From Escherichia phage vB_EcoM_LNA1, in the sequence record MZ311863.1: a stretch of 64,000 nt of DNA; one strand, given 5' to 3'. Every line of letters starts with the position of its first letter. Within the stretch, counting starts at the first letter, position 1. The notes beneath the pieces were generated by a model. That model ran no database searches. It saw only the letters and a list, made by a program, of their open reading frames with translations, and was not told where the DNA came from. Shown in pieces: positions 3,086 through 33,223 of this stretch. A program made the position numbers and the translations under genes.

Positions 3086-3585
3086 TGGCTGAAGTTATCT
3101 CTATTTCAAATGCTACACGAGTGCATTCGTATAGAGGTGTTCTTATTATCACTGACAAATTATCTGTAGAGGCTGGCTCAAGGGTTAGCCTTTCAGGTTA
3201 TGTAAGTGATGGTGGAGCCTCTGACGTTTTCACTATTTGCAGGTTACTTGATGCTCCAATGAGTGGAAAACCGTTTATTTCAGGAAATTGTAGTGAAATT
3301 GTTAAAATTCCATTTGACAGTTCATGCCTTTTGGGTGTAAAGTTATATAACTGCGAGAATAAACGTATCAATGTTAATAGCATTGAAGCCGCTTTCATTA
3401 CCCTCGACACTGCATTTCAATCTCCAATGACAGTTAATAAAGAAACAAACAGACTTGAATACATTTTTTCACAAAATGATTACAAAGTACTTGTCAAAGG
3501 CAAAGTTTATGATATGATTGTAAATGTGGTAGATGAATCTGGTAACCATTCAACAGTCCTTAAACAAAAAGTAAGGTTTAATTAA
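3085..3585 (+). CDS. hypothetical head-module protein
   Basis: 166-aa ORF, start overlaps portal stop (ATGA coupling). Confidence 0.3.
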   Translation: MAEVISISNATRVHSYRGVLIITDKLSVEAGSRVSLSGYVSDGGASDVFTICRLLDAPMSGKPFISGNCSEIVKIPFDSSCLLGVKLYNCENKRINVNSIEAAFITLDTAFQSPMTVNKETNRLEYIFSQNDYKVLVKGKVYDMIVNVVDESGNHSTVLKQKVRFN

Positions 3586-3917
3586 TGGGAACATTAACTA
3601 TTGATGGTAAGAATAAAATCCTCGCCACGCTAACCCCAACGACTATTATTTTACACAATGTAGACCCAACGGCAGACCCTACAGCAAATAAGGTTACTCA
3701 GCCAGTGGCTATTTATTTTTCTGAACCGGATAATGGCTTAATTGCCTCAGAAGACACAGTTAATATTACTGTCCCAGCTTCTGCAACGGTCTCACACTAT
3801 AGCTTGTGGGATGCTAACGATAAATGCGTGGCAACTGGTGCTCTTAGCAAACCTCAATTCTTTGCTGAAGAAGGTATCTATGTTATCTCTTCAGTCTCTG
3901 TAGATTTAAACAAATAG
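3585..3917 (+). CDS. hypothetical head-module protein
   Basis: 110-aa ORF translationally coupled to upstream gene. Confidence 0.3.
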   Translation: MGTLTIDGKNKILATLTPTTIILHNVDPTADPTANKVTQPVAIYFSEPDNGLIASEDTVNITVPASATVSHYSLWDANDKCVATGALSKPQFFAEEGIYVISSVSVDLNK

Positions 3918-19291: not shown

Positions 19292-20440
19292 ATGGCAGTA
19301 GGTGAAATTCAAATTAGTGCCTTGCCTCAAGCAGCCTTACCAATTGACCTTAGTGATATCTTCCATCTTAAACAGGGTATCGAGGATAAGAGATGCACTC
19401 TTGAGCAATTACTTGCTCCACACTCAAGCCTAAGAAATAACCCTCATGGTGTTACTAAGACACAAATTGGTTTAGATAACGTTATTAATGCTCTCCAGTT
19501 AGTTGCTGAAAATAACTTATCAGACATTGTTAATGTAGCTGAGGCAAGAGCAAATCTACAGATTATGTCTTCAGAAGAGGTTAATAATCTTATTCAACAA
19601 CATATTGATGATAAGAGCAACCCACACAATACCACTAAGGCACAGGTTGGGTTAAGTAATGTTCAGAACTGGGTGACATCTAACCTTTATAACGAGGATG
19701 CAGATAAGTATGCTACAGCAAGAGCAGTAAATAACTTGTACAAGGCTGTTCAGGCTTCTTATCCAGTAGGTACTATCCATCTCTCTATGAATCCTGCAAA
19801 CCCTTCTACATATTTAATTTGTGGAGGTACTTGGGAGTTAGTTTCAAAAGGAAGAGCACTTGTAGGTTATGATAGTGCTTCTAGGCCAGTTGGCTCAACG
19901 TTTGGTTCGCAGACTACTGCACTGACAGTTAACAACATTCCTGCACATACTCACTCAGTATACGTCACTGGTGGTGGTCACACACACGGTGCAACGGCCT
20001 CTATCAGTGCTTTTGACTACGGTACTAAAGGGACTACAACGTTTGACTATGGAACAAAGACTGTATCTACTTATGACTATGGTAACAGAACAACCAGTGC
20101 TGCTGGTTTAACACAAACAACATTCATTAATCGTGGTTATGCTGATGGTGGTTGGAGAGGTTTATCAGTTGAGGGGGCAAGCTATGACCCAAGAGCTACG
20201 CTGACAACAGCTAACAACCACACTCACTCTGTAGCAATTGGTGCGCATAATCACACAGTTGGTATTGGTGCTCACAGTCATTCTGTTGCAATTGGCTCCC
20301 ACAACCACTCAGCAACAGTAACAGTAACCGGAGCAGGTGAGCATTCGCACTCTGGCACAACTGGCACAACTGGTTCTGGTCAAGCATTTAGCGTTGAACA
20401 GCCATCCTTCGTATTGTATGTATGGCAGAGAACAGCTTAA
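19292..20440 (+). CDS. tail fibre protein with His-rich (HxH) C-terminal tip
   Basis: N-terminal repeated NPH..TK.Q.GL.NV motifs; FDYGTK triplet repeat; C-terminal HTHSV/AHNHTV/AHSHSV/SHNHS boxes and ...GSGQAFSV...W.RTA end shared with next gene. Confidence 0.6.
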   Translation: MAVGEIQISALPQAALPIDLSDIFHLKQGIEDKRCTLEQLLAPHSSLRNNPHGVTKTQIGLDNVINALQLVAENNLSDIVNVAEARANLQIMSSEEVNNLIQQHIDDKSNPHNTTKAQVGLSNVQNWVTSNLYNEDADKYATARAVNNLYKAVQASYPVGTIHLSMNPANPSTYLICGGTWELVSKGRALVGYDSASRPVGSTFGSQTTALTVNNIPAHTHSVYVTGGGHTHGATASISAFDYGTKGTTTFDYGTKTVSTYDYGNRTTSAAGLTQTTFINRGYADGGWRGLSVEGASYDPRATLTTANNHTHSVAIGAHNHTVGIGAHSHSVAIGSHNHSATVTVTGAGEHSHSGTTGTTGSGQAFSVEQPSFVLYVWQRTA

Positions 20441-20450
20441 TTTCTTTACA

Positions 20451-20470
20451 GGGGCTATACAGCCCCTTTT
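20451..20470 (+). terminator. rho-independent terminator
   Basis: GGGGCT-ATAC-AGCCCC hairpin followed by TTTT, 10 nt after fibre gene stop. Confidence 0.6.
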
Positions 20471-20486
20471 AAGAGGAAAATTTATA

Positions 20487-22838
20487 ATGGCAGATTACAA
20501 GTTGAGTGAATTAAACTCAATTGATACAATTCGTTCAGACGACCTCCTTCATGTCAGGGTTAAAAAGAGACCTGAAATGCTGGGCGATGAAGACCGTCGA
20601 ATGACCTATCAAGACTTCTTAGCATCTTTTAAACTAGAAAGATTTGTCCAGATTGCTGGTAGCACTATGACGGGTGACTTAGGAATTGTCAAGTTACTTT
20701 ATGGTGGTAAGGCAGTATTTGACCCTACAGGTGCTTCTGAGATTGCTGTTGGGGATGTTTTAAAGACTTTTAAAATCAACGCAAACGGCCTTAGACTAAC
20801 TATTGCAGATGCTTCAAGGTCAGCAACTGTTTATCATACTCTGAATAAGCCAAGTCCTAATGAACTTGGGATGAGAACTAATGAAGAGAATGACGCAAGA
20901 TACTCAAGATTAGCTGTAAATAACACATTTAGAGGTACTCAAGCTATTCTCTCTGACAATGAAGCTCTTATTGTTAAGAATATTACACAAGGAATGCCGC
21001 TGTATATTCGTGGTCAAGATGCAGATGGTACTAATAGGTGGTATCTAGGCAATGATAATAGGGGTACAGATAATCTGGTTATCAAAAATGTCAAATCCGG
21101 TGCGTATTTAGCTATTTTGGATAACCTAATCTCTGTGAACAAATCAATCCAAATCACTGGTCAAGTTCAACCTTCTAACTTCTCTAACTTAGATGCTAGA
21201 TACTTTACTCAGACAGCAGCTAATCAGAGATTTGCGCAGCTAGTTGGTAATAACACATTCAGTGGTTTAAACACATTCAACCAACTAAGTGTTTTCAAAA
21301 AAGATGGTGAAGCAATTAGGCTACAGAATGCCAATGCTGCACAACCATTGTACATTAAGGCGATTGATAGCACAGGTGTCAACAGATGGTACATTGGTAA
21401 TAGTAACGAAGGTGATAACGTAGCTCTAGAAAACTACAAAACTAGTGGCAAGATTACTGTAGGGACAAGTGTTAATATCAATAAAACACTAACTGTAACT
21501 GGTCAAGTTCAACCTTCTGACTGGACTAACATTGACTCTCGTTATGTTCTTATCGGTTCATACGCAAATCTTGCTAAGAAGAATGAAGCTAACACATTCA
21601 CTTTACAGCAGAATATTCAATCTGATGGTGAAGCATTAAGAATCTACAGCAAGGCTCAGAATAATTCTTCTTACATTGTTGGTAAGAATACTGATAACAC
21701 AAATAAGTGGTTTATCGGTTGTGGTACTAATGGTTCTGGTACGGCATCATTCCATAACTACTTGACTGGTGCAAGACTCGATTTAGCTGACGAAGTTCTT
21801 CTGTCTAAATCTCTACAGATTACTGGACAGGTAAAACCTTCTGATTGGTCTAACTTAGATGCTAGATACTTCACTCAGTCAGCAGCTAATCAGAGATTCA
21901 TGGTTGCAGGTTCTACAGGAGAAGCTACAGAGCAGAATGCAGATGGTGTGGCATGGAACGCTAAAACAGGCTTATATAATGTAACCTCAACAAATGCTGA
22001 TTACACAGCACTTGTGTTTCAAATGTATCAGGCGGTGCCATCTTCTACTGCCTGTGCGCAACTAAAGTTCCAGTATAAAAATGGTGGGATGTGGTACAGA
22101 ACATCTGTAGACAGTAAAGGTTTTGAGGCTAAGTGGTCTAAGGTTTACACAGAGGCTCAGAAGCCAACCCCTTCAGAGCTTGGTGCATACACTAAAACTG
22201 AAACTGACCAGAAGATTGCACAGGCAGTAAGTGACTCTACAGACCTTAACAAAATCTATCCAGTAGGTATTGTAACGTGGTTTAACAGTAATGTTGACCC
22301 TAATACAGCACTTCCTGGTCTAACTTGGACGTACCTCAACAATGGTGTTGGTAGAACTATCAGAATTGCAGCAGCAAACGGTTCAGATGTTGCTACAACT
22401 GGTGGTTCAGACTCTGTGACGTTAGCTGTTGGGAACTTGCCTTCACACACTCACAGTTTTTCTGCTACCACTTCATCTTTTAACTACGGTACAAAATACA
22501 CTAACACAACTGGTGCTCACGCTCACTCTGTAAGTGGCTATACTTCATCTGCTGGTCACCACAACCACGCTATCTCGTGGATTGGTCAGAACTCTACACA
22601 CTATTCTGGTGGTGGTGGTGGTAGAATCGGTACAGGTCCGGGTTACACTGATGGGGGTGGTGACCACGCGCATTCAATTAGTGGTACTGCCGCCTATGCT
22701 GGTGACCATGCTCACAGTGTTGGTATTGGTGCTCACAGCCACACAGTTAGTGGTAACACTGGTGGTACAGGTTCTGGTTCAGCATTTAGTGTTACTAACC
22801 AGTTCTACAAGTTAATGGCTTGGGTAAGAACTGCTTAA
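20487..22838 (+). CDS. long tail fibre protein with three ~110-aa tandem repeats and His-rich (HxH) tip
   Basis: Start moved to ATG at 20487 (AAGAGG SD); the track's upstream extension overlaps the previous gene and the terminator. Repeats at about 21153, 21495, 21819; C-terminal HxH boxes. Confidence 0.65.
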   Translation: MADYKLSELNSIDTIRSDDLLHVRVKKRPEMLGDEDRRMTYQDFLASFKLERFVQIAGSTMTGDLGIVKLLYGGKAVFDPTGASEIAVGDVLKTFKINANGLRLTIADASRSATVYHTLNKPSPNELGMRTNEENDARYSRLAVNNTFRGTQAILSDNEALIVKNITQGMPLYIRGQDADGTNRWYLGNDNRGTDNLVIKNVKSGAYLAILDNLISVNKSIQITGQVQPSNFSNLDARYFTQTAANQRFAQLVGNNTFSGLNTFNQLSVFKKDGEAIRLQNANAAQPLYIKAIDSTGVNRWYIGNSNEGDNVALENYKTSGKITVGTSVNINKTLTVTGQVQPSDWTNIDSRYVLIGSYANLAKKNEANTFTLQQNIQSDGEALRIYSKAQNNSSYIVGKNTDNTNKWFIGCGTNGSGTASFHNYLTGARLDLADEVLLSKSLQITGQVKPSDWSNLDARYFTQSAANQRFMVAGSTGEATEQNADGVAWNAKTGLYNVTSTNADYTALVFQMYQAVPSSTACAQLKFQYKNGGMWYRTSVDSKGFEAKWSKVYTEAQKPTPSELGAYTKTETDQKIAQAVSDSTDLNKIYPVGIVTWFNSNVDPNTALPGLTWTYLNNGVGRTIRIAAANGSDVATTGGSDSVTLAVGNLPSHTHSFSATTSSFNYGTKYTNTTGAHAHSVSGYTSSAGHHNHAISWIGQNSTHYSGGGGGRIGTGPGYTDGGGDHAHSISGTAAYAGDHAHSVGIGAHSHTVSGNTGGTGSGSAFSVTNQFYKLMAWVRTA

Positions 22839-28998: not shown

Positions 28999-29232
28999 TC
29001 ATATCAACTCCAGAATATCAATACGTTCACCCTTAAGGACTCCTGTACGGTCTCTTGCAATCTTACCGTCAACGATAAGGATATGCGCGACCTTTAAAGC
29101 CTCACGATTAAAACCTTTTAAGAACTTGCTAGGCATCACGACAATGGACATCTCCTGAATCAACTCTGGAGTATAGCAATTGTCATGAAGTTGCTGAATA
29201 ACGTCTGCAAGTGTCATTTTTGGTGTCTCCAA
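28999..29232 (-). CDS. hypothetical protein
   Basis: 77-aa ORF. Confidence 0.3.
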   Translation of the reverse strand: METPKMTLADVIQQLHDNCYTPELIQEMSIVVMPSKFLKGFNREALKVAHILIVDGKIARDRTGVLKGERIDILELI

Positions 29233-29423
29233 TACTCAATGTCAATAAGTTCTTGTGCAATGCTTTTCAGATTACCTTTCAAGAAAACCTTCTCAGAACC
29301 TGAAAGAGATGAATTGTCAATTAACCTGTTCATTCTCTCAAACAACTTATGCTTACGGTTCTTGATAGTTTCCTTTGAAGCACCTTTCATCATCGCTGCA
29401 TGGGTTCTTCCACGGTGGCTCAT
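29214..29423 (-). CDS. hypothetical protein
   Basis: 69-aa basic ORF. Confidence 0.3.
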   Translation of the reverse strand: MSHRGRTHAAMMKGASKETIKNRKHKLFERMNRLIDNSSLSGSEKVFLKGNLKSIAQELIDIEYWRHQK

Positions 29424-29474
29424 AAGCCCTCCTATACAAGATATAGTATAAGGTACTCTTCCCTGAGCACCTTG

Positions 29475-30026
29475 TCAACTTAGTTTTGCAAACTCTCCGT
29501 GGAGTTTAATAGCAGCTTCACAGTAAGCTTTATGGGCTTCTTCAGGGGTGTCAAACATACCAAGATGATAGTTTTTACCTTGTAAACGTATCATTGCTCG
29601 AAACCTTTTACTTATCTTCTGTACACCTTTTGGCAACCCAGATGGGGACTCTCTTGACCGATTGCAAGAGTTTTGTGAAGCTGTACAAACCCTTAAATTC
29701 AAGTACCTGTTGTCCCAACCGTCCCCATTCTTATGGTCAACCTGTAAGGTTTTATCAGGTAGATATCCATCCATATACAAGATAACTAAACGATTTGCTT
29801 GGTAACCCCTTCCATCAATCAGCAACTGAACTGACTTGTGTCCATCAGTATTTGTTCTGTAGTTTCCAGCCCTCTTACCTCCAAATCTAGAGTTAAAGTT
29901 TGCATTACCTTCTCTAAACTTCCAAGTAAAGACCCCTGTTTCGGGGTCGTAGTCCAATAGCTCCTTAAGACGAATTTCTGTAATCATTTCAACACCATCA
30001 ATGTACCTCATACCAGCTCTTACCAA
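29475..30026 (-). CDS. HNH homing endonuclease with AP2-like DNA-binding domain (free-standing)
   Basis: HNH motif LQVDHKNGDGWDNRYLNLRVCTASQN; C-terminal AP2-like GKNYHLGMFDTPEEAHKAY; start overlaps the 3' end of DNA polymerase exon 2. Confidence 0.7.
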   Translation of the reverse strand: MVRAGMRYIDGVEMITEIRLKELLDYDPETGVFTWKFREGNANFNSRFGGKRAGNYRTNTDGHKSVQLLIDGRGYQANRLVILYMDGYLPDKTLQVDHKNGDGWDNRYLNLRVCTASQNSCNRSRESPSGLPKGVQKISKRFRAMIRLQGKNYHLGMFDTPEEAHKAYCEAAIKLHGEFAKLS

Positions 30027-30554
30027 CCTTTGCTGTACCAGTTACAAGTGTTTCTTTCCTCAAACCTAAGTTTTTTGAAGCTTGTCCATACATCCAGTCA
30101 GCAATTGCTTTCATATCCTGTGTCATACCCTCTGGACATTCCCAACTATTTTCATCGTGATATGCCAGAAGTAACCTTGCTCCGATAGCTGGTTTTCGAG
30201 CATTCAGTTTTGTCAGGCCATCTTCACAGGCTTTTCTTGCTGCTAGGTTGATGGCCTCATTCTGAATCTGTGCTTCCGAACTCATCAGGAGGTAGTTCAG
30301 GAGTTTATGTGGAGATTTGCACCATATCCATGCTCCAGCGACCCTGATATAACCACCTTTAGCAATTGAAGAATTCTTCCCAAAAACCTCTTCCAGAGCC
30401 TTTTTAGACGCCTTAAAATCGGCTTCTAAGCTGTCAAGTAACTTCTTAATCTTCGGTAGACGCATATAGTAAGTCTGCTTAGTCAATGCACCTTCTTCTG
30501 TAGATGATGCCTTGATAGTTTTTGCAAACTTCTCATCACCTGCACCGAACAATA
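29998..30554 (-). CDS. DNA polymerase (family A), exon 2
   Basis: Encodes remainder of motif B (LFGAGDEK) and motif C (LAYHDE); reading frame opens just after a stop; joins exon 1 in frame when intron 30555..30822 is removed. Confidence 0.75.
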
Positions 30555-30822
30555 CATCTGGTCAATACACTCGCAAGGTGTACCAGTTCTCTTATGAACT
30601 TCTCCGCATTTCTACGGAGTGTCGGACTATATCACGTAGTAGTAATACTACCGTTGCACTTGGGAATGGTCATTAGCTTACCACCCTACTCTACTCAGTT
30701 CATACATTAAGTATGCTTTTCGATAGTCTCTGAACGTTCCTCTCAAGAGGCTTCGCTGCTGATTACCGTATCTTCTCAGACTTAGGCTTCCAGCAATTCA
30801 CAACGTTTTACATGCGCCACTG
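30555..30822 (-). ncRNA. group I self-splicing intron (ORF-less, 268 nt) in DNA polymerase gene
   Basis: Exon 1 ends in U; P1 pairs exon ATGCGU with intron GCGCAT (U.G at splice site); P/Q/R/S-like elements AATTGCTGGAA, AATCAGCAGCG, GTTCAGAGACTATCG, GATATAGTCC; terminal G before exon 2. Confidence 0.7.
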
Positions 30823-32965
30823 ACGCATAAATGCCATTTTTGGCTTTCTTACGACCTTTTGTAATCTCGTGAAGAAGTTCCTCGTCCTGTGTCCCCCTAC
30901 AACGAACAATATCTTCTTCCTTGTTCAGACCAAAGTAAATACTGTTCAGTGTGTGTGCATCAGTACCTGTGTAGACTTCGTAGAGGTCATTCTCAGCATC
31001 ATAACGAAGATACTTATCAGTTTCTGGATTGAGGTACTTATCAAGATGCTTGCAATAGTATCTCCCATCATCTTGCTTAGTAAATTCTACAAACTCTTTA
31101 CCTTCAGTTACCGCTTTGGTGAAGTCTTTATCACCCATAAAGTTACACAGTAAAACAAGCTGTGCAGAGTTCTGGTCAACAGAAACAATGTTAGTACCCT
31201 CTTCACAAATCCACACTTCCCTCATAGGTGCTCCATAGACAGCAGCACCAGATGGTACGTTTACAATACCATATTGTGTCATACGTCCAGTTGAAGTACC
31301 AAATACCATTGCACCAGCACTAAGGCGACCATCGGGACGAATCTGGTTCAACCAACCTTTTTCATCATCCTTTGAGTTCTCAATAGTTCTGCGTCGGTGC
31401 ATCAAAGTATAGTACTTAGCAATCTTCTGTCCAAGCTCACCTTCAATCGTATCATAAGATGATTCAGTAAGCTTTGGTGAAGTACGGATTAAGCAAGGCT
31501 CAAGCAAATCTGTGTATTTCTTCACAGACCAGTTATGCTCAATGTACTGTACACCTTCATGTTCAACATAGCTCAAACCACACCGCTCAACCATTTCCTG
31601 CCACTTAGGATGTTTTGTAATCATCTTTTTATTGTCTTTGAAACGACAAACTTTGACAGGGCGACCATCTGAGTCTTTCTTGTAGTTCCAGTCATCTGGA
31701 ATCCAACCAACTGATTTCAAGTAATCTTTAACAACTGCTACCTGAGTCATACGAGAAACTTCGAACTCAATTGGTGTATAAGGTGCATCAATCAAACCTG
31801 TGTAGCGACTTGACTCAAGCTCAAAGTGATTAACAACATGGCTGTTATAGTACTTCACAGTTTTAACTGTTTTTACTGGCTTCCAGTCTTTGCATTTCTT
31901 ACCAATCTTTGCATTCAACTCATTACAAATTGCACGAGCATCCTTCATTGCTACAAAACCTTCCTTGTACTCTTCACCAGTTACAGAGTTGGTTGGTGTA
32001 TAGCAATTTCTCTTTTCAATGTTAAAAATCTTTGTAGTTGGCTTACCAAATGGTTTGATTTCATAAGTCTGCATCTCACCATTACGTACCTGCTGACGAT
32101 ACTTTGTCTTAGGATACTTGGTAATTCTCTTCAGTCCATCTGCATGACCAAATGTTTCAACATACTCATTCCAAGCTTTTGCAAACTCTTCTCCAGTGAC
32201 TTTACCTTTAGTCTTAATAGTTGGAGGAAGATGTGGTTCAACTTCTGAAGCAAGCTCATTAGTCAACTTGTCAAGTTCCTTTACATGGAACTCCATAAGC
32301 TCTTTATCAGCTTTCCAACCATTGATAGCCTGTTGACTCATCCAGAAAGATGTTTCTTTAGCTCGCATGTAGGTTTCATAAGTATCTACGCCACACTTCT
32401 TTAGCTTGAGATATTCATTATCCAGTGCGCGTTTAGTTTTGGCGTTAATACGGATATCTTCCACAACACGAGTGAAGATTTCTGCATTCCACACACCCCA
32501 ATGTTCAATCTCTGGTTTACGTACACCAACACGAGCACCCCATGCAGCCAAGCCATGAGCACCTTTATAACCTTTTGGAGTTGGTCTATCCATCCACTGA
32601 ACACGGGACTGGATAAGAGAATCCTGAAAGAAATTACTCCACGGTTTACACTTTGGATTATCAAAGTTCCATAAATCCGGTGCAATGTGATTGAAAACCC
32701 ACCAGTCATAACCGAGACCGTTATGGATACAAAGACGTTTTGCCTTTAACGCAAACTCAACACCTTCACGTAAGCCACCCTTAATGTACTTAGTGTACTT
32801 GTGACCGAGGATAGGCTCATCTGTAAAGACCCATACAGGTGGCTCTTCATCGTCAGATTTATAGTCTGCAAAGGCCATTACGTGAACTTTAGTGAACTCA
32901 AGGAGTAAACCATCAGTTTCTGTATCACCAACCAAATGTAAGTTTTTAAAATCTACGTTTTCCAT
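30823..32965 (-). CDS. DNA polymerase (family A, T7 gp5-like), exon 1
   Basis: 3'-5' exonuclease motif DTETDG near N-terminus; motif B start RKKAKNGIYA interrupted; the ORF-track stop at 30782 lies inside the intron. Confidence 0.8.
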
Positions 32966-33223
32966 TTTTTACTCCCTCTAAAACCATTAACCTCATACAC
33001 TACTGCAAAAAATTATAAAAAGCAAGTTGACAATGCACTTGACAAGGTGTTAATCTTTGCGAAGTGGGTTTTTACTTAAAAGGTTACTTAACAGTTTAAC
33101 TATACAGATACTTTAAAACTCTTAAAAGATTATTTAATAGCTTTTAAAAAGCTTTAAAGTATAACGTATAGAATACGTTAAGATAAAAGATTAAAACTTA
33201 ATAGTTACTTAAAAGAGGCTTAC

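Follow-up and report, generated by a model that had tools for sequence, protein, structure and literature searches.

We analyzed a 64,000-nucleotide (nt) stretch of DNA from Escherichia phage vB_EcoM_LNA1 (MZ311863.1; referred to here as the window), focusing on positions 29,475 to 30,822, where a gene for an HNH endonuclease with an AP2-type DNA-binding domain (HNH-AP2; cassette type H1) abuts the second exon of an intron-containing DNA polymerase gene (pol). Comparison with related phages established the anatomy of this locus, its polymorphism, and its mosaic structure. We consider it fairly probable that the locus holds two separate selfish elements, a nuclease-less group I intron and a free-standing HNH-AP2 cassette, and that the H1 nuclease cuts near the slot occupied by the cassette, not at the site where the intron is inserted. 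A preliminary description of this DNA had suggested collaborative homing of nuclease and intron or an intermediate in the formation of a mobile intron. This interpretation was right in kind, in that a selfish nuclease does lie next to an intron without a nuclease, but its specifics are wrong in the case of H1.

Window positions 29000-33200 matched ∼260 phage records at 85-96% identity by megablast, nearly all of them from Felixounavirus, the genus to which the window belongs (Felix O1-like myoviruses of Escherichia, Salmonella, Shigella, and Citrobacter). Besides the window, we typed 39 related loci, 16 from IMG/VR and 23 from GenBank (cited by L numbers where individual loci have to be told apart). 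One IMG/VR locus is truncated upstream of the insertion site and GEC_vB_BS has no exon 2, so that the fully typed set consists of 37 relatives and the window. A composite query made of an exon 1 anchor, the intron, and the specific parts of the H1, H2, and H3 cassettes matched 256 records, from which an evenly spaced sample of 60 was taken. The slot directly after pol is empty in 9 typed loci; in 29 others and in the window it is filled, at the same nucleotide position, by one of five cassette types (H1, H2, H2b, H3, or H4 of Felix O1), with inserts of ∼500-530 nt. The core features of the window, where pol, intron, and nuclease gene all lie on the minus strand, are as follows.

30823..32965, minus strand: DNA polymerase exon 1 (family A), ending in the U of a split Leu codon; open reading frame (ORF) and Pfam DNA_pol_A, with the 3' border set by alignment to the intron-less pol of Alf5
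30555..30822, minus strand: ORF-less group I intron of 268 nt in pol motif B (O-helix); Rfam RF00028, precisely absent in Alf5 and many relatives
29998..30554, minus strand: DNA polymerase exon 2, including the stop codon TGA at 30000-29998; C-terminal part of Pfam DNA_pol_A, collinear with the pol of Alf5
29475..29987, minus strand: free-standing HNH-AP2 homing endonuclease gene, cassette type H1, 170 amino acids (aa) from a conserved ATG, stop codon TGA at 29477-29475; Pfam, PDB profile matches, and polymorphism of the site

The intron insertion site in genomes with and without H1

The target of a homing enzyme is present in genomes that lack the enzyme and absent from the enzyme's own genome. 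Where pol is uninterrupted, the motif B sequence at the insertion site reads AATGGTATCTATGCACTGCTGTTCGGTGCAGGTGATGAG. All five intron-less H1 genomes (Alf5, ekra, LMP25, LF82P2, and L007) carry this site as it stands in empty-slot phages, the region in LMP25 showing a single synonymous difference (GGT to GGG at +18). Exon 2, in full, and the final 1500 nt of exon 1 were compared between 10 H1 loci and 9 empty-slot loci. The positions that separate all of the former from all of the latter lie exclusively between +323 and +553, in the last 235 nt of pol, and none was found from -1500 to +322. Given that the insertion site is the same in H1 and empty-slot genomes, H1 could not tell donor from recipient there; by exclusion, the comparison points to the 3' end of pol or to the junction split by the cassette as the likely target of H1.

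The window is also a mosaic. Between ∼31100 and the pol stop, its 100-nt blocks show 92-100% identity to H2-bearing phages such as L005 and MBP4696116, compared with only 74-84% identity to ekra over the same stretch. From the first base of the cassette on, identity to ekra is 98-100% over the cassette and mostly 95-99% downstream, while that to L005 is ∼50%. These identities indicate an exchange at the pol stop through which H1 was joined to an intron-bearing allele. Phages REP8-12, which carry H2, have an intron 100% identical to the window's, and the window's exon 2 belongs to a block, termed type A here, whose other occurrences are with H2 cassettes. In HMD-P8, H1 and the intron allele are combined as they are in the window.

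In the mechanism that we infer for cleavage, drive, and intron hitch-hiking, H1 would be made from the pol transcript, starting at the ATG at 29987, and, much like I-HmuI, would nick or cut H1-less genomes near its own insertion point, either in the last ∼235 nt of pol or at the pol-stop/intergenic junction, and not at the intron insertion site. Repair from an H1 genome would copy the cassette together with a variable stretch of pol exon 2, and cassettes would replace each other by recombination between the conserved end of pol and a 3' arm that they share. The intron, 557 nt upstream, would spread only when the co-conversion tract reached it, in trans homing of the MobE/I-TevIII type; alternatively, a co-infecting relative could supply an Endo VII nuclease for it. 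The 557 nt between intron and cassette compare with co-conversion over up to 2 kb in T4 (PMC2790892), and H1 is intact beside the nuclease-less intron; H1 may act on the intron in trans. We take the locus for a combination of known kinds of element, a free-standing HNH-AP2 homing endonuclease and a decayed mobile group I intron, possibly with trans homing, and it involves no new mechanism.

Several points weigh against this account. Fixed differences near the 3' end of pol are also expected from plain linkage to the cassette, and the target is located by exclusion only. In intron-less H1 genomes, the H1-linked block reaches ∼240 nt upstream, which is less than the 557 nt to the intron, and intron hitch-hiking may therefore be rare. 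The argument from self-cleavage is somewhat weakened by I-HmuI, which nicks its own genome too (PMC3428280). Finally, the co-occurrence of ORF-less introns with cassettes (see below) was counted on phylogenetically non-independent records, which amount to ∼5-6 distinct combinations of intron form and cassette.

A nuclease-less group I intron and its nuclease-bearing relatives

The preliminary description had noted an ORF-less intron in the polymerase gene, and this was borne out: the intron gives a full-length match to the group I model RF00028 (61.5 bits versus a gathering threshold of 50; E=3.7e-13) and has no ORF within it. An Rfam scan of the 64 kb found no second group I intron. Alignment to the uninterrupted pol of Alf5 sets the exact borders at 30822..30555 (minus strand, 268 nt). 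The splice sites are canonical, with a 5' exon that ends in U and a last intron base G (...CCAGAUG), and a 6-bp P1 is readable between exon AUGCGU and intron GCGCAU (intron positions 6-11), with a U.G pair at the splice site. The spliced pol of 899 aa is equal in length to that of Alf5 and collinear with it. Given that joining of the exons restores an intact motif B (KKAKNGIYA followed across the junction by LLFGAGDEK), the intron position is the O-helix. The minimum-free-energy fold of the intron was not distinctive (z=-1.49), and we therefore relied on the covariance model. The 268-nt intron, which is nuclease-less, is predicted to be splicing competent.

The frame of exon 1 reads 13 codons into the intron, up to a TAA stop at 30784-30782; unspliced mRNA would thus yield a pol truncated inside motif B (intron part of the reading frame, window 30782-30822). 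In GenBank, the split pol is annotated as a separate 727-aa “DNA polymerase” and a “DNA polymerase subunit.”

Many relatives carry a longer form of the same intron. It measures 802-805 nt in GEC_vB_B1, Barry, EC6, JH2, PC79-13, and many others, and its P6 loop holds a gene for a 160/161-aa protein of the Endo VII family (PF02945, 71 bits). At least two alleles of this protein exist, 79% identical to each other (L019, L023, and L030, with introns of 805 nt, versus L021 and L032, with introns of 802 nt). The intron of VpaE1 has a third length, with a span of 780 nt. The proteins of JH2, EC6, and FSL SP-010 have been listed as intron encoded, in the F-CphI/DHHRN family (Fang et al. 2018, PMC6083498); their introns occupy the same site as the window's intron and are that intron in its nuclease-bearing form. 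Unlike them, the window copy has no ORF, and that paper is silent on ORF-less derivatives and on the neighboring HNH-AP2 slot.

The 311-nt intron of Mushroom and Tf corresponds to the 802-nt form minus its ORF, deleted between GACT(C/A)CCTAA repeats, and it retains the last two codons and the stop of the Endo VII ORF (AGC AAA TAA). This remnant marks the 311-nt form as a decay product and, judging from the alignment, a clean deletion derivative of the long form. The 268-nt form of the window has a minimal P6 hairpin with a compensatory stem change from U-A to C-G; here, loss of the nuclease gene is the simpler reading of the polarity of the change.

30739..30750, minus strand: minimal P6 hairpin CCTCTTGAGAGG in the window intron; alignment with GEC_vB_B1, Mushroom, JH2, and PC79-13

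The ORF-less forms, at least that of 311 nt, being decay products of an intron that carries an Endo VII gene in its P6 loop in relatives, they count against the idea that the arrangement is an intermediate in the formation of a mobile intron. Elsewhere in the window, tblastn detected neither an Endo VII gene nor a second HNH-AP2 copy.

The slot after pol and the H1 gene

The slot and the cassette are delimited by the features below, followed by those within the H1 gene.

29464..29478, minus strand: conserved intergenic motif TTGACAAGGTGCTCA, right-hand bound of the cassette; locus comparison
29475..29550, minus strand: 3' arm common to H1, H2, H2b, H3, and Felix O1 H4 at ∼100% nucleotide identity; cassette nucleotide alignment
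29667..29801, minus strand: HNH_3 catalytic domain (VDHKNGD...DN...NLR...QN); Pfam, residues 76-120 of the 183-aa ORF
29496..29618, minus strand: AP2-type DNA-binding domain; Pfam AP2 and cassette-family profile
29931..29948, minus strand: terminator-like hairpin GACCCCGAAACAGGGGTC, with TTTACTT after it, within the H1 gene toward its 5' end; terminator scan and fold
29988..30026, minus strand: upstream extension of the longest ORF (TTG 30026, ATG 30011), overlapping the 3' end of pol; start-codon comparison

Empty-slot phages, in which the 3' end of pol and the junction read ...GGTAAAAGCTGGCTTGAGGTACACTAATTAGTATTGACAAGG..., have TTGACAAGGTGCTCA beginning 6 nt past the pol stop, and the cassettes are inserted exactly there. 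The proteins of the other cassettes share 44-53% identity with H1. In nucleotide sequence, the middle parts of the cassettes are unrelated and the last 75-85 nt, which encode the AP2 C-terminal helix TPEEAHKAYCEAAIKLHGEFAKLS, are ∼100% identical; this shared end was seen likewise in L005, L006, L013, L019, and L020. Identical ends around unrelated middles suggest that the nuclease, along with most of the DNA-binding domain, is exchanged as a module between arms that stay fixed, in which the shared 3' arm is likely to serve as the right-hand recombination arm. A TTGACA...TATACT motif after the cassette was rejected as a σ70 promoter, with a 22-nt spacer and no counterpart in the output of the promoter scan, and was kept as a conserved motif only. 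In Felix O1 (L020, NC_005282), a further HNH-AP2 gene, ORF106, follows the exonuclease gene at 20341-20865; its product is 41% identical to H1, and tblastn found no counterpart of it elsewhere in the window.

Profile evidence agrees with the earlier call of an HNH endonuclease with an AP2-like domain that directly abuts pol on the same strand. H1 matches HNH_3 with 45.4 bits (cutoff, 24.8). Its own AP2 match of 26.6 bits stays under the cutoff of 33.3, compared with 38-51 bits for the sister cassettes H2, H2b, and H3; the assignment is secured by the cassette-family profile, which matches plant AP2/ERF (WRI1/ERF) structures at E=9.6e-11 to 4e-5. The same profile matches I-HmuI at E=2.1e-7. Residues D84, H85, N93, N97, and N109 are invariant among the cassette types, and the core aligns to I-HmuI (1U3E). 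The ORF is intact in 11 of 11 H1 genomes, with a ratio of nonsynonymous to synonymous substitution rates (dN/dS) of 0.05-0.35; H1 is under purifying selection.

The start of H1 probably lies outside pol. The ATG at 29987, 10 nt past the pol stop TGA (30000-29998), is kept in 11 of 11 H1 genomes and falls, in the alignment, on the start of H2b, a related cassette in which no start codon is available further upstream; two GenBank records (HMD-P8 and LMP25) use it as the start. By comparison, the ATG at 30011 is TGG in 6 of the 11 H1 genomes, and the TTG at 30026 is merely the first start codon of the open frame. We therefore prefer the ATG at 29987, and the extension 29988..30026 is probably not translated as part of the nuclease. 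The 29-nt overlap with exon 2 given in the preliminary description rests on the TTG start of the longest ORF, and with it falls the translational coupling to pol that had been deduced from this overlap.

The hairpin GACCCCGAAACAGGGGTC lies ∼40 nt into the nuclease gene and forms an 18-nt patch of ∼100% nucleotide identity among the cassettes. Its stem is the same to the nucleotide in all types, although their proteins share no more than 44-53% identity. Possible roles are attenuation of read-through from pol and use as a patch for recombination.

Co-occurrence of intron and cassettes, alternative explanations, and related systems

Overall, 93-96 records carry the intron. The 60 sampled records are distributed as follows.

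Intron and cassette: 15/60 (H2, 7; H3, 4; H1, 4)
Cassette without intron: 14/60 (H1, 3; H2/H2b, 6; H3, 5)
Intron without recognizable cassette: 7/60
Neither intron nor cassette: 24/60

The sample shows no special tie of H1 to the intron. H1 occurs with the intron in at least 8 records and without it in at least 12, and the intron is accompanied by H1, H2, H3, or no cassette. A pattern does appear when the forms of the intron are told apart. In all 19 records that combine the intron with a contiguous empty-slot junction, the intron is of the long, nuclease-bearing form, as in EC6, whereas of 60 records with both intron and cassette, the intron lacks an ORF in 49 (268 or 311 nt) and is long in 11. 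Long introns were counted in at least 21 records with an empty or unrecognized slot and in 14 with a cassette, a count that is incomplete because the ORF alleles are too diverged for a megablast query with the Endo VII ORF. The cassettes beside ORF-less introns include H1, H2, and H3, and several exon backgrounds are represented. Against at least 49 ORF-less introns with a cassette, the sampled records contained not one clean case of an ORF-less intron beside an empty slot. The sole ORF-less intron without a full cassette is the 311-nt intron of GEC_vB_BS (L031, MW006475, ∼3175-3640), where exon 2 breaks off at position +31 and continues directly as the 3' tail of an HNH cassette, with ∼1 kb, including most of exon 2, deleted; either the assembly is wrong or the genome is defective. 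The constant company of ORF-less introns with a cassette would fit MobE-like trans homing or nuclease turnover, but it may also reflect shared ancestry.

Nuclease turnover is the core of an alternative that we regard as a minor but real possibility. It holds that the Endo VII gene was lost only where an HNH-AP2 cassette lay 557 nt away and that mobility of the intron was thereby handed over to H2, which would have converged on the insertion site in a true collaborative homing that arose by turnover and not on the way to a mobile intron; the 268-nt intron would have spread with H2, and H1 would later have replaced H2 and be a bystander. Turnover of this kind has been proposed by Barth et al. 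(PMC10448857), ∼32 records combine H2 with the 268-nt intron, and the window's intron and exon 2 form an H2-lineage block. In addition, every H2 genome examined has either the intron or an insertion site of the Felix O1 type, in which every wobble position is changed from -7 to +21 (10 codons). This variant is found in all seven intron-less H2 genomes, three of which were fetched as a blind test, and is scarce in intron-less loci with other slot states (0/5 with H1, 1/4 with H3, 0/3 with H2b, and 0/6 with an empty slot). However, H2 always sits on a type A exon 2, so that even this perfect association is inseparable from linkage, and we kept H2 as a site-specific partner among the rival explanations only. 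Felix O1, moreover, has the variant site with another cassette, substitution windows of 47 nt that are equally dense occur elsewhere in pol, and one H2 copy beside the intron is a pseudogene. This copy, beside the ORF-less intron of L036 (MBP4696116, OP515798; 3507-4040), has a premature stop (W75*) and is a decaying cassette.

The Felix O1-type site spans -22..+21 in L003, L004, L017, L020, L027, L028, and L037-L039, changing KKAK to KKSK in all but L020, and it sits in backgrounds otherwise near-identical to those of intron-bearing phages. The substitution patch in L003, L004, and L017 could be taken to prove that resistance to the nuclease was selected, but we downgraded this reading given that the patch is a Felix O1-type allele (4 differences from Felix O1) and that dense windows occur elsewhere; gain or loss of an intron could equally have left such a patch as its co-conversion tract.

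Another explanation, which we consider unlikely, is that there is no functional link at all: the ORF-less intron would be an immobile, neutral passenger, and its company with the cassette would reflect shared ancestry and tight linkage over 557 nt. The records are indeed strongly clonal, those with H2 and the 268-nt intron, for example, forming one near-identical group. The H1-linked blocks are shorter than the distance to the intron, and L003-type and L005-type loci differ in the intron with a flanking change of only ∼±22 nt, pointing to gain or loss without cassette exchange. On the other hand, ORF-less forms with three cassette types and several exon backgrounds imply frequent recombination, and the want of a clean ORF-less intron with an empty slot contrasts with the long introns that have an empty or unrecognized one.

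Strict collaborative homing, in which H1 would cleave intron-less pol at the insertion site and the nuclease gene and ORF-less intron would be copied together, appears very unlikely to us. The arrangement itself, an ORF-less intron with an adjacent free-standing HNH-AP2 gene, is real and resembles that of F-CphI and the psbA intron and of T3 gene 5.3 and the phiI intron, as described in two later papers (PMC3984707, PMC10448857). Motif B is the kind of conserved target used by such enzymes, and a cassette is present in 15/22 intron-bearing versus 14/38 intron-less records of the sample. It is cleavage of the insertion site by H1 that did not stand: with the site unchanged in all five H1 genomes that lack the intron, the genome of H1 itself would be cut just as readily, leaving H1 no drive. 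H1 is also at least as frequent without the intron, the intron occurs with H2, H3, or no cassette as well, and it was an exchange at the pol stop that brought the window's H1 to an intron-bearing allele. That H1 is no longer a homing enzyme, but decaying or recruited by the phage (e.g., as an AP2-type regulator or for exclusion of competitors), is in our view highly improbable, as its fixed position, its expression with pol, the conserved terminator-like hairpin, and the decay known in the slot (W75*) are set against an intact ORF with conserved catalytic residues under low dN/dS and against presence/absence and allelic polymorphism among near-identical genomes, a hallmark of mobile nucleases.

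A close precedent is T4 MobE and the nrdB intron with its defunct I-TevIII, a case of trans homing (Wilson & Edgell 2009, PMC2790892). Both loci have a free-standing HNH gene next to a conserved gene whose intron is without a working nuclease, and in both the intron would be mobilized via co-conversion after a break away from its insertion site, the distance between the two elements being critical. They differ in that the nuclease considered here has an AP2 domain and lies downstream of the intron-bearing gene and that the whole intron ORF has been lost, whereas T4 keeps a defective one. Collaborative homing, as later papers summarize it, has been described for F-CphI and the psbA intron of cyanophage S-PM2 and for T3 gene 5.3 and I-TslI of phiI (Zeng et al. 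2009 and Bonocora & Shub 2009, via PMC3984707, PMC2790892, and PMC10448857). There, too, an ORF-less (or related) group I intron occupies a conserved site with a free-standing nuclease beside the gene, and the gene of the T7-like phages is likewise a family A DNA polymerase. Cleavage of the insertion site, however, which defines such homing, is at odds with what intron-less H1 genomes show, namely an unaltered site, and the nuclease that the intron itself encodes in relatives is of the Endo VII family and no homologue of the free-standing one.

At the protein level, H1 resembles I-HmuI, an HNH nicking endonuclease encoded by an intron of Bacillus phage SPO1's DNA polymerase gene (PDB 1U3E). 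The two have an N-terminal nuclease and C-terminal DNA binding in common, and their HNH_3 cores align (DH...N...N; phmmer E=1.7e-3). The likeness is confined to the core and identity is low; I-HmuI is intron encoded and has another DNA-binding domain. The order of HNH followed by AP2 is that of the HNH-AP2 homing endonucleases (Magnani et al. 2004, via PMC10448857) and of IPA-HNH (Barth et al. 2023). IPA-HNH genes sit beside essential genes, as H1 does, 29% of them near DNA polymerase genes (PMC10448857), and Felix O1 also has such a gene after pol. In contrast to H1, which matches Pfam HNH_3 well, the ICP1-type proteins are too diverged for this model. No Felixounavirus entry was found in the text or supplements of PMC10448857, and on a Felixounavirus pol intron paired with an HNH gene the literature searches yielded only the list of Endo VII proteins in PMC6083498 and a brief reference to “two introns” in SPJ41.

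Free-standing homing endonucleases beside nuclease-less introns are the proposed bridge from separate selfish elements to composite mobile introns, and few cases have been studied. The locus described here offers rich natural variation within one genus of easily handled phages, with three intron states (no intron, an intron with the Endo VII gene, and an ORF-less intron) combined with an empty slot or at least five cassettes, and thus supplies concrete substrates for asking which enzyme cuts where. The data also argue that loci of collaborative appearance can arise by loss of an intronic nuclease beside an unrelated free-standing one, in line with the turnover idea of Barth et al. (2023). Should mobility of the intron in fact have been handed over to H2, how composite mobile introns originate and decay could be tested directly in coliphages and Salmonella phages that are easy to cross and of which ∼250 have been sequenced. 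On a practical level, our analysis corrects the annotation of the split “DNA polymerase” and “DNA polymerase subunit” and of the start codon of the nuclease.

Two of the records that we retrieved, MG065664 and MG065668, are labeled “Campylobacter phage A132/A126” and are 95% identical to the Felixounavirus locus, including the intron and H2, and one “Staphylococcus”-labeled record appeared among the organism summaries of the megablast matches. These records with foreign host labels are probably contaminants or mislabeled.

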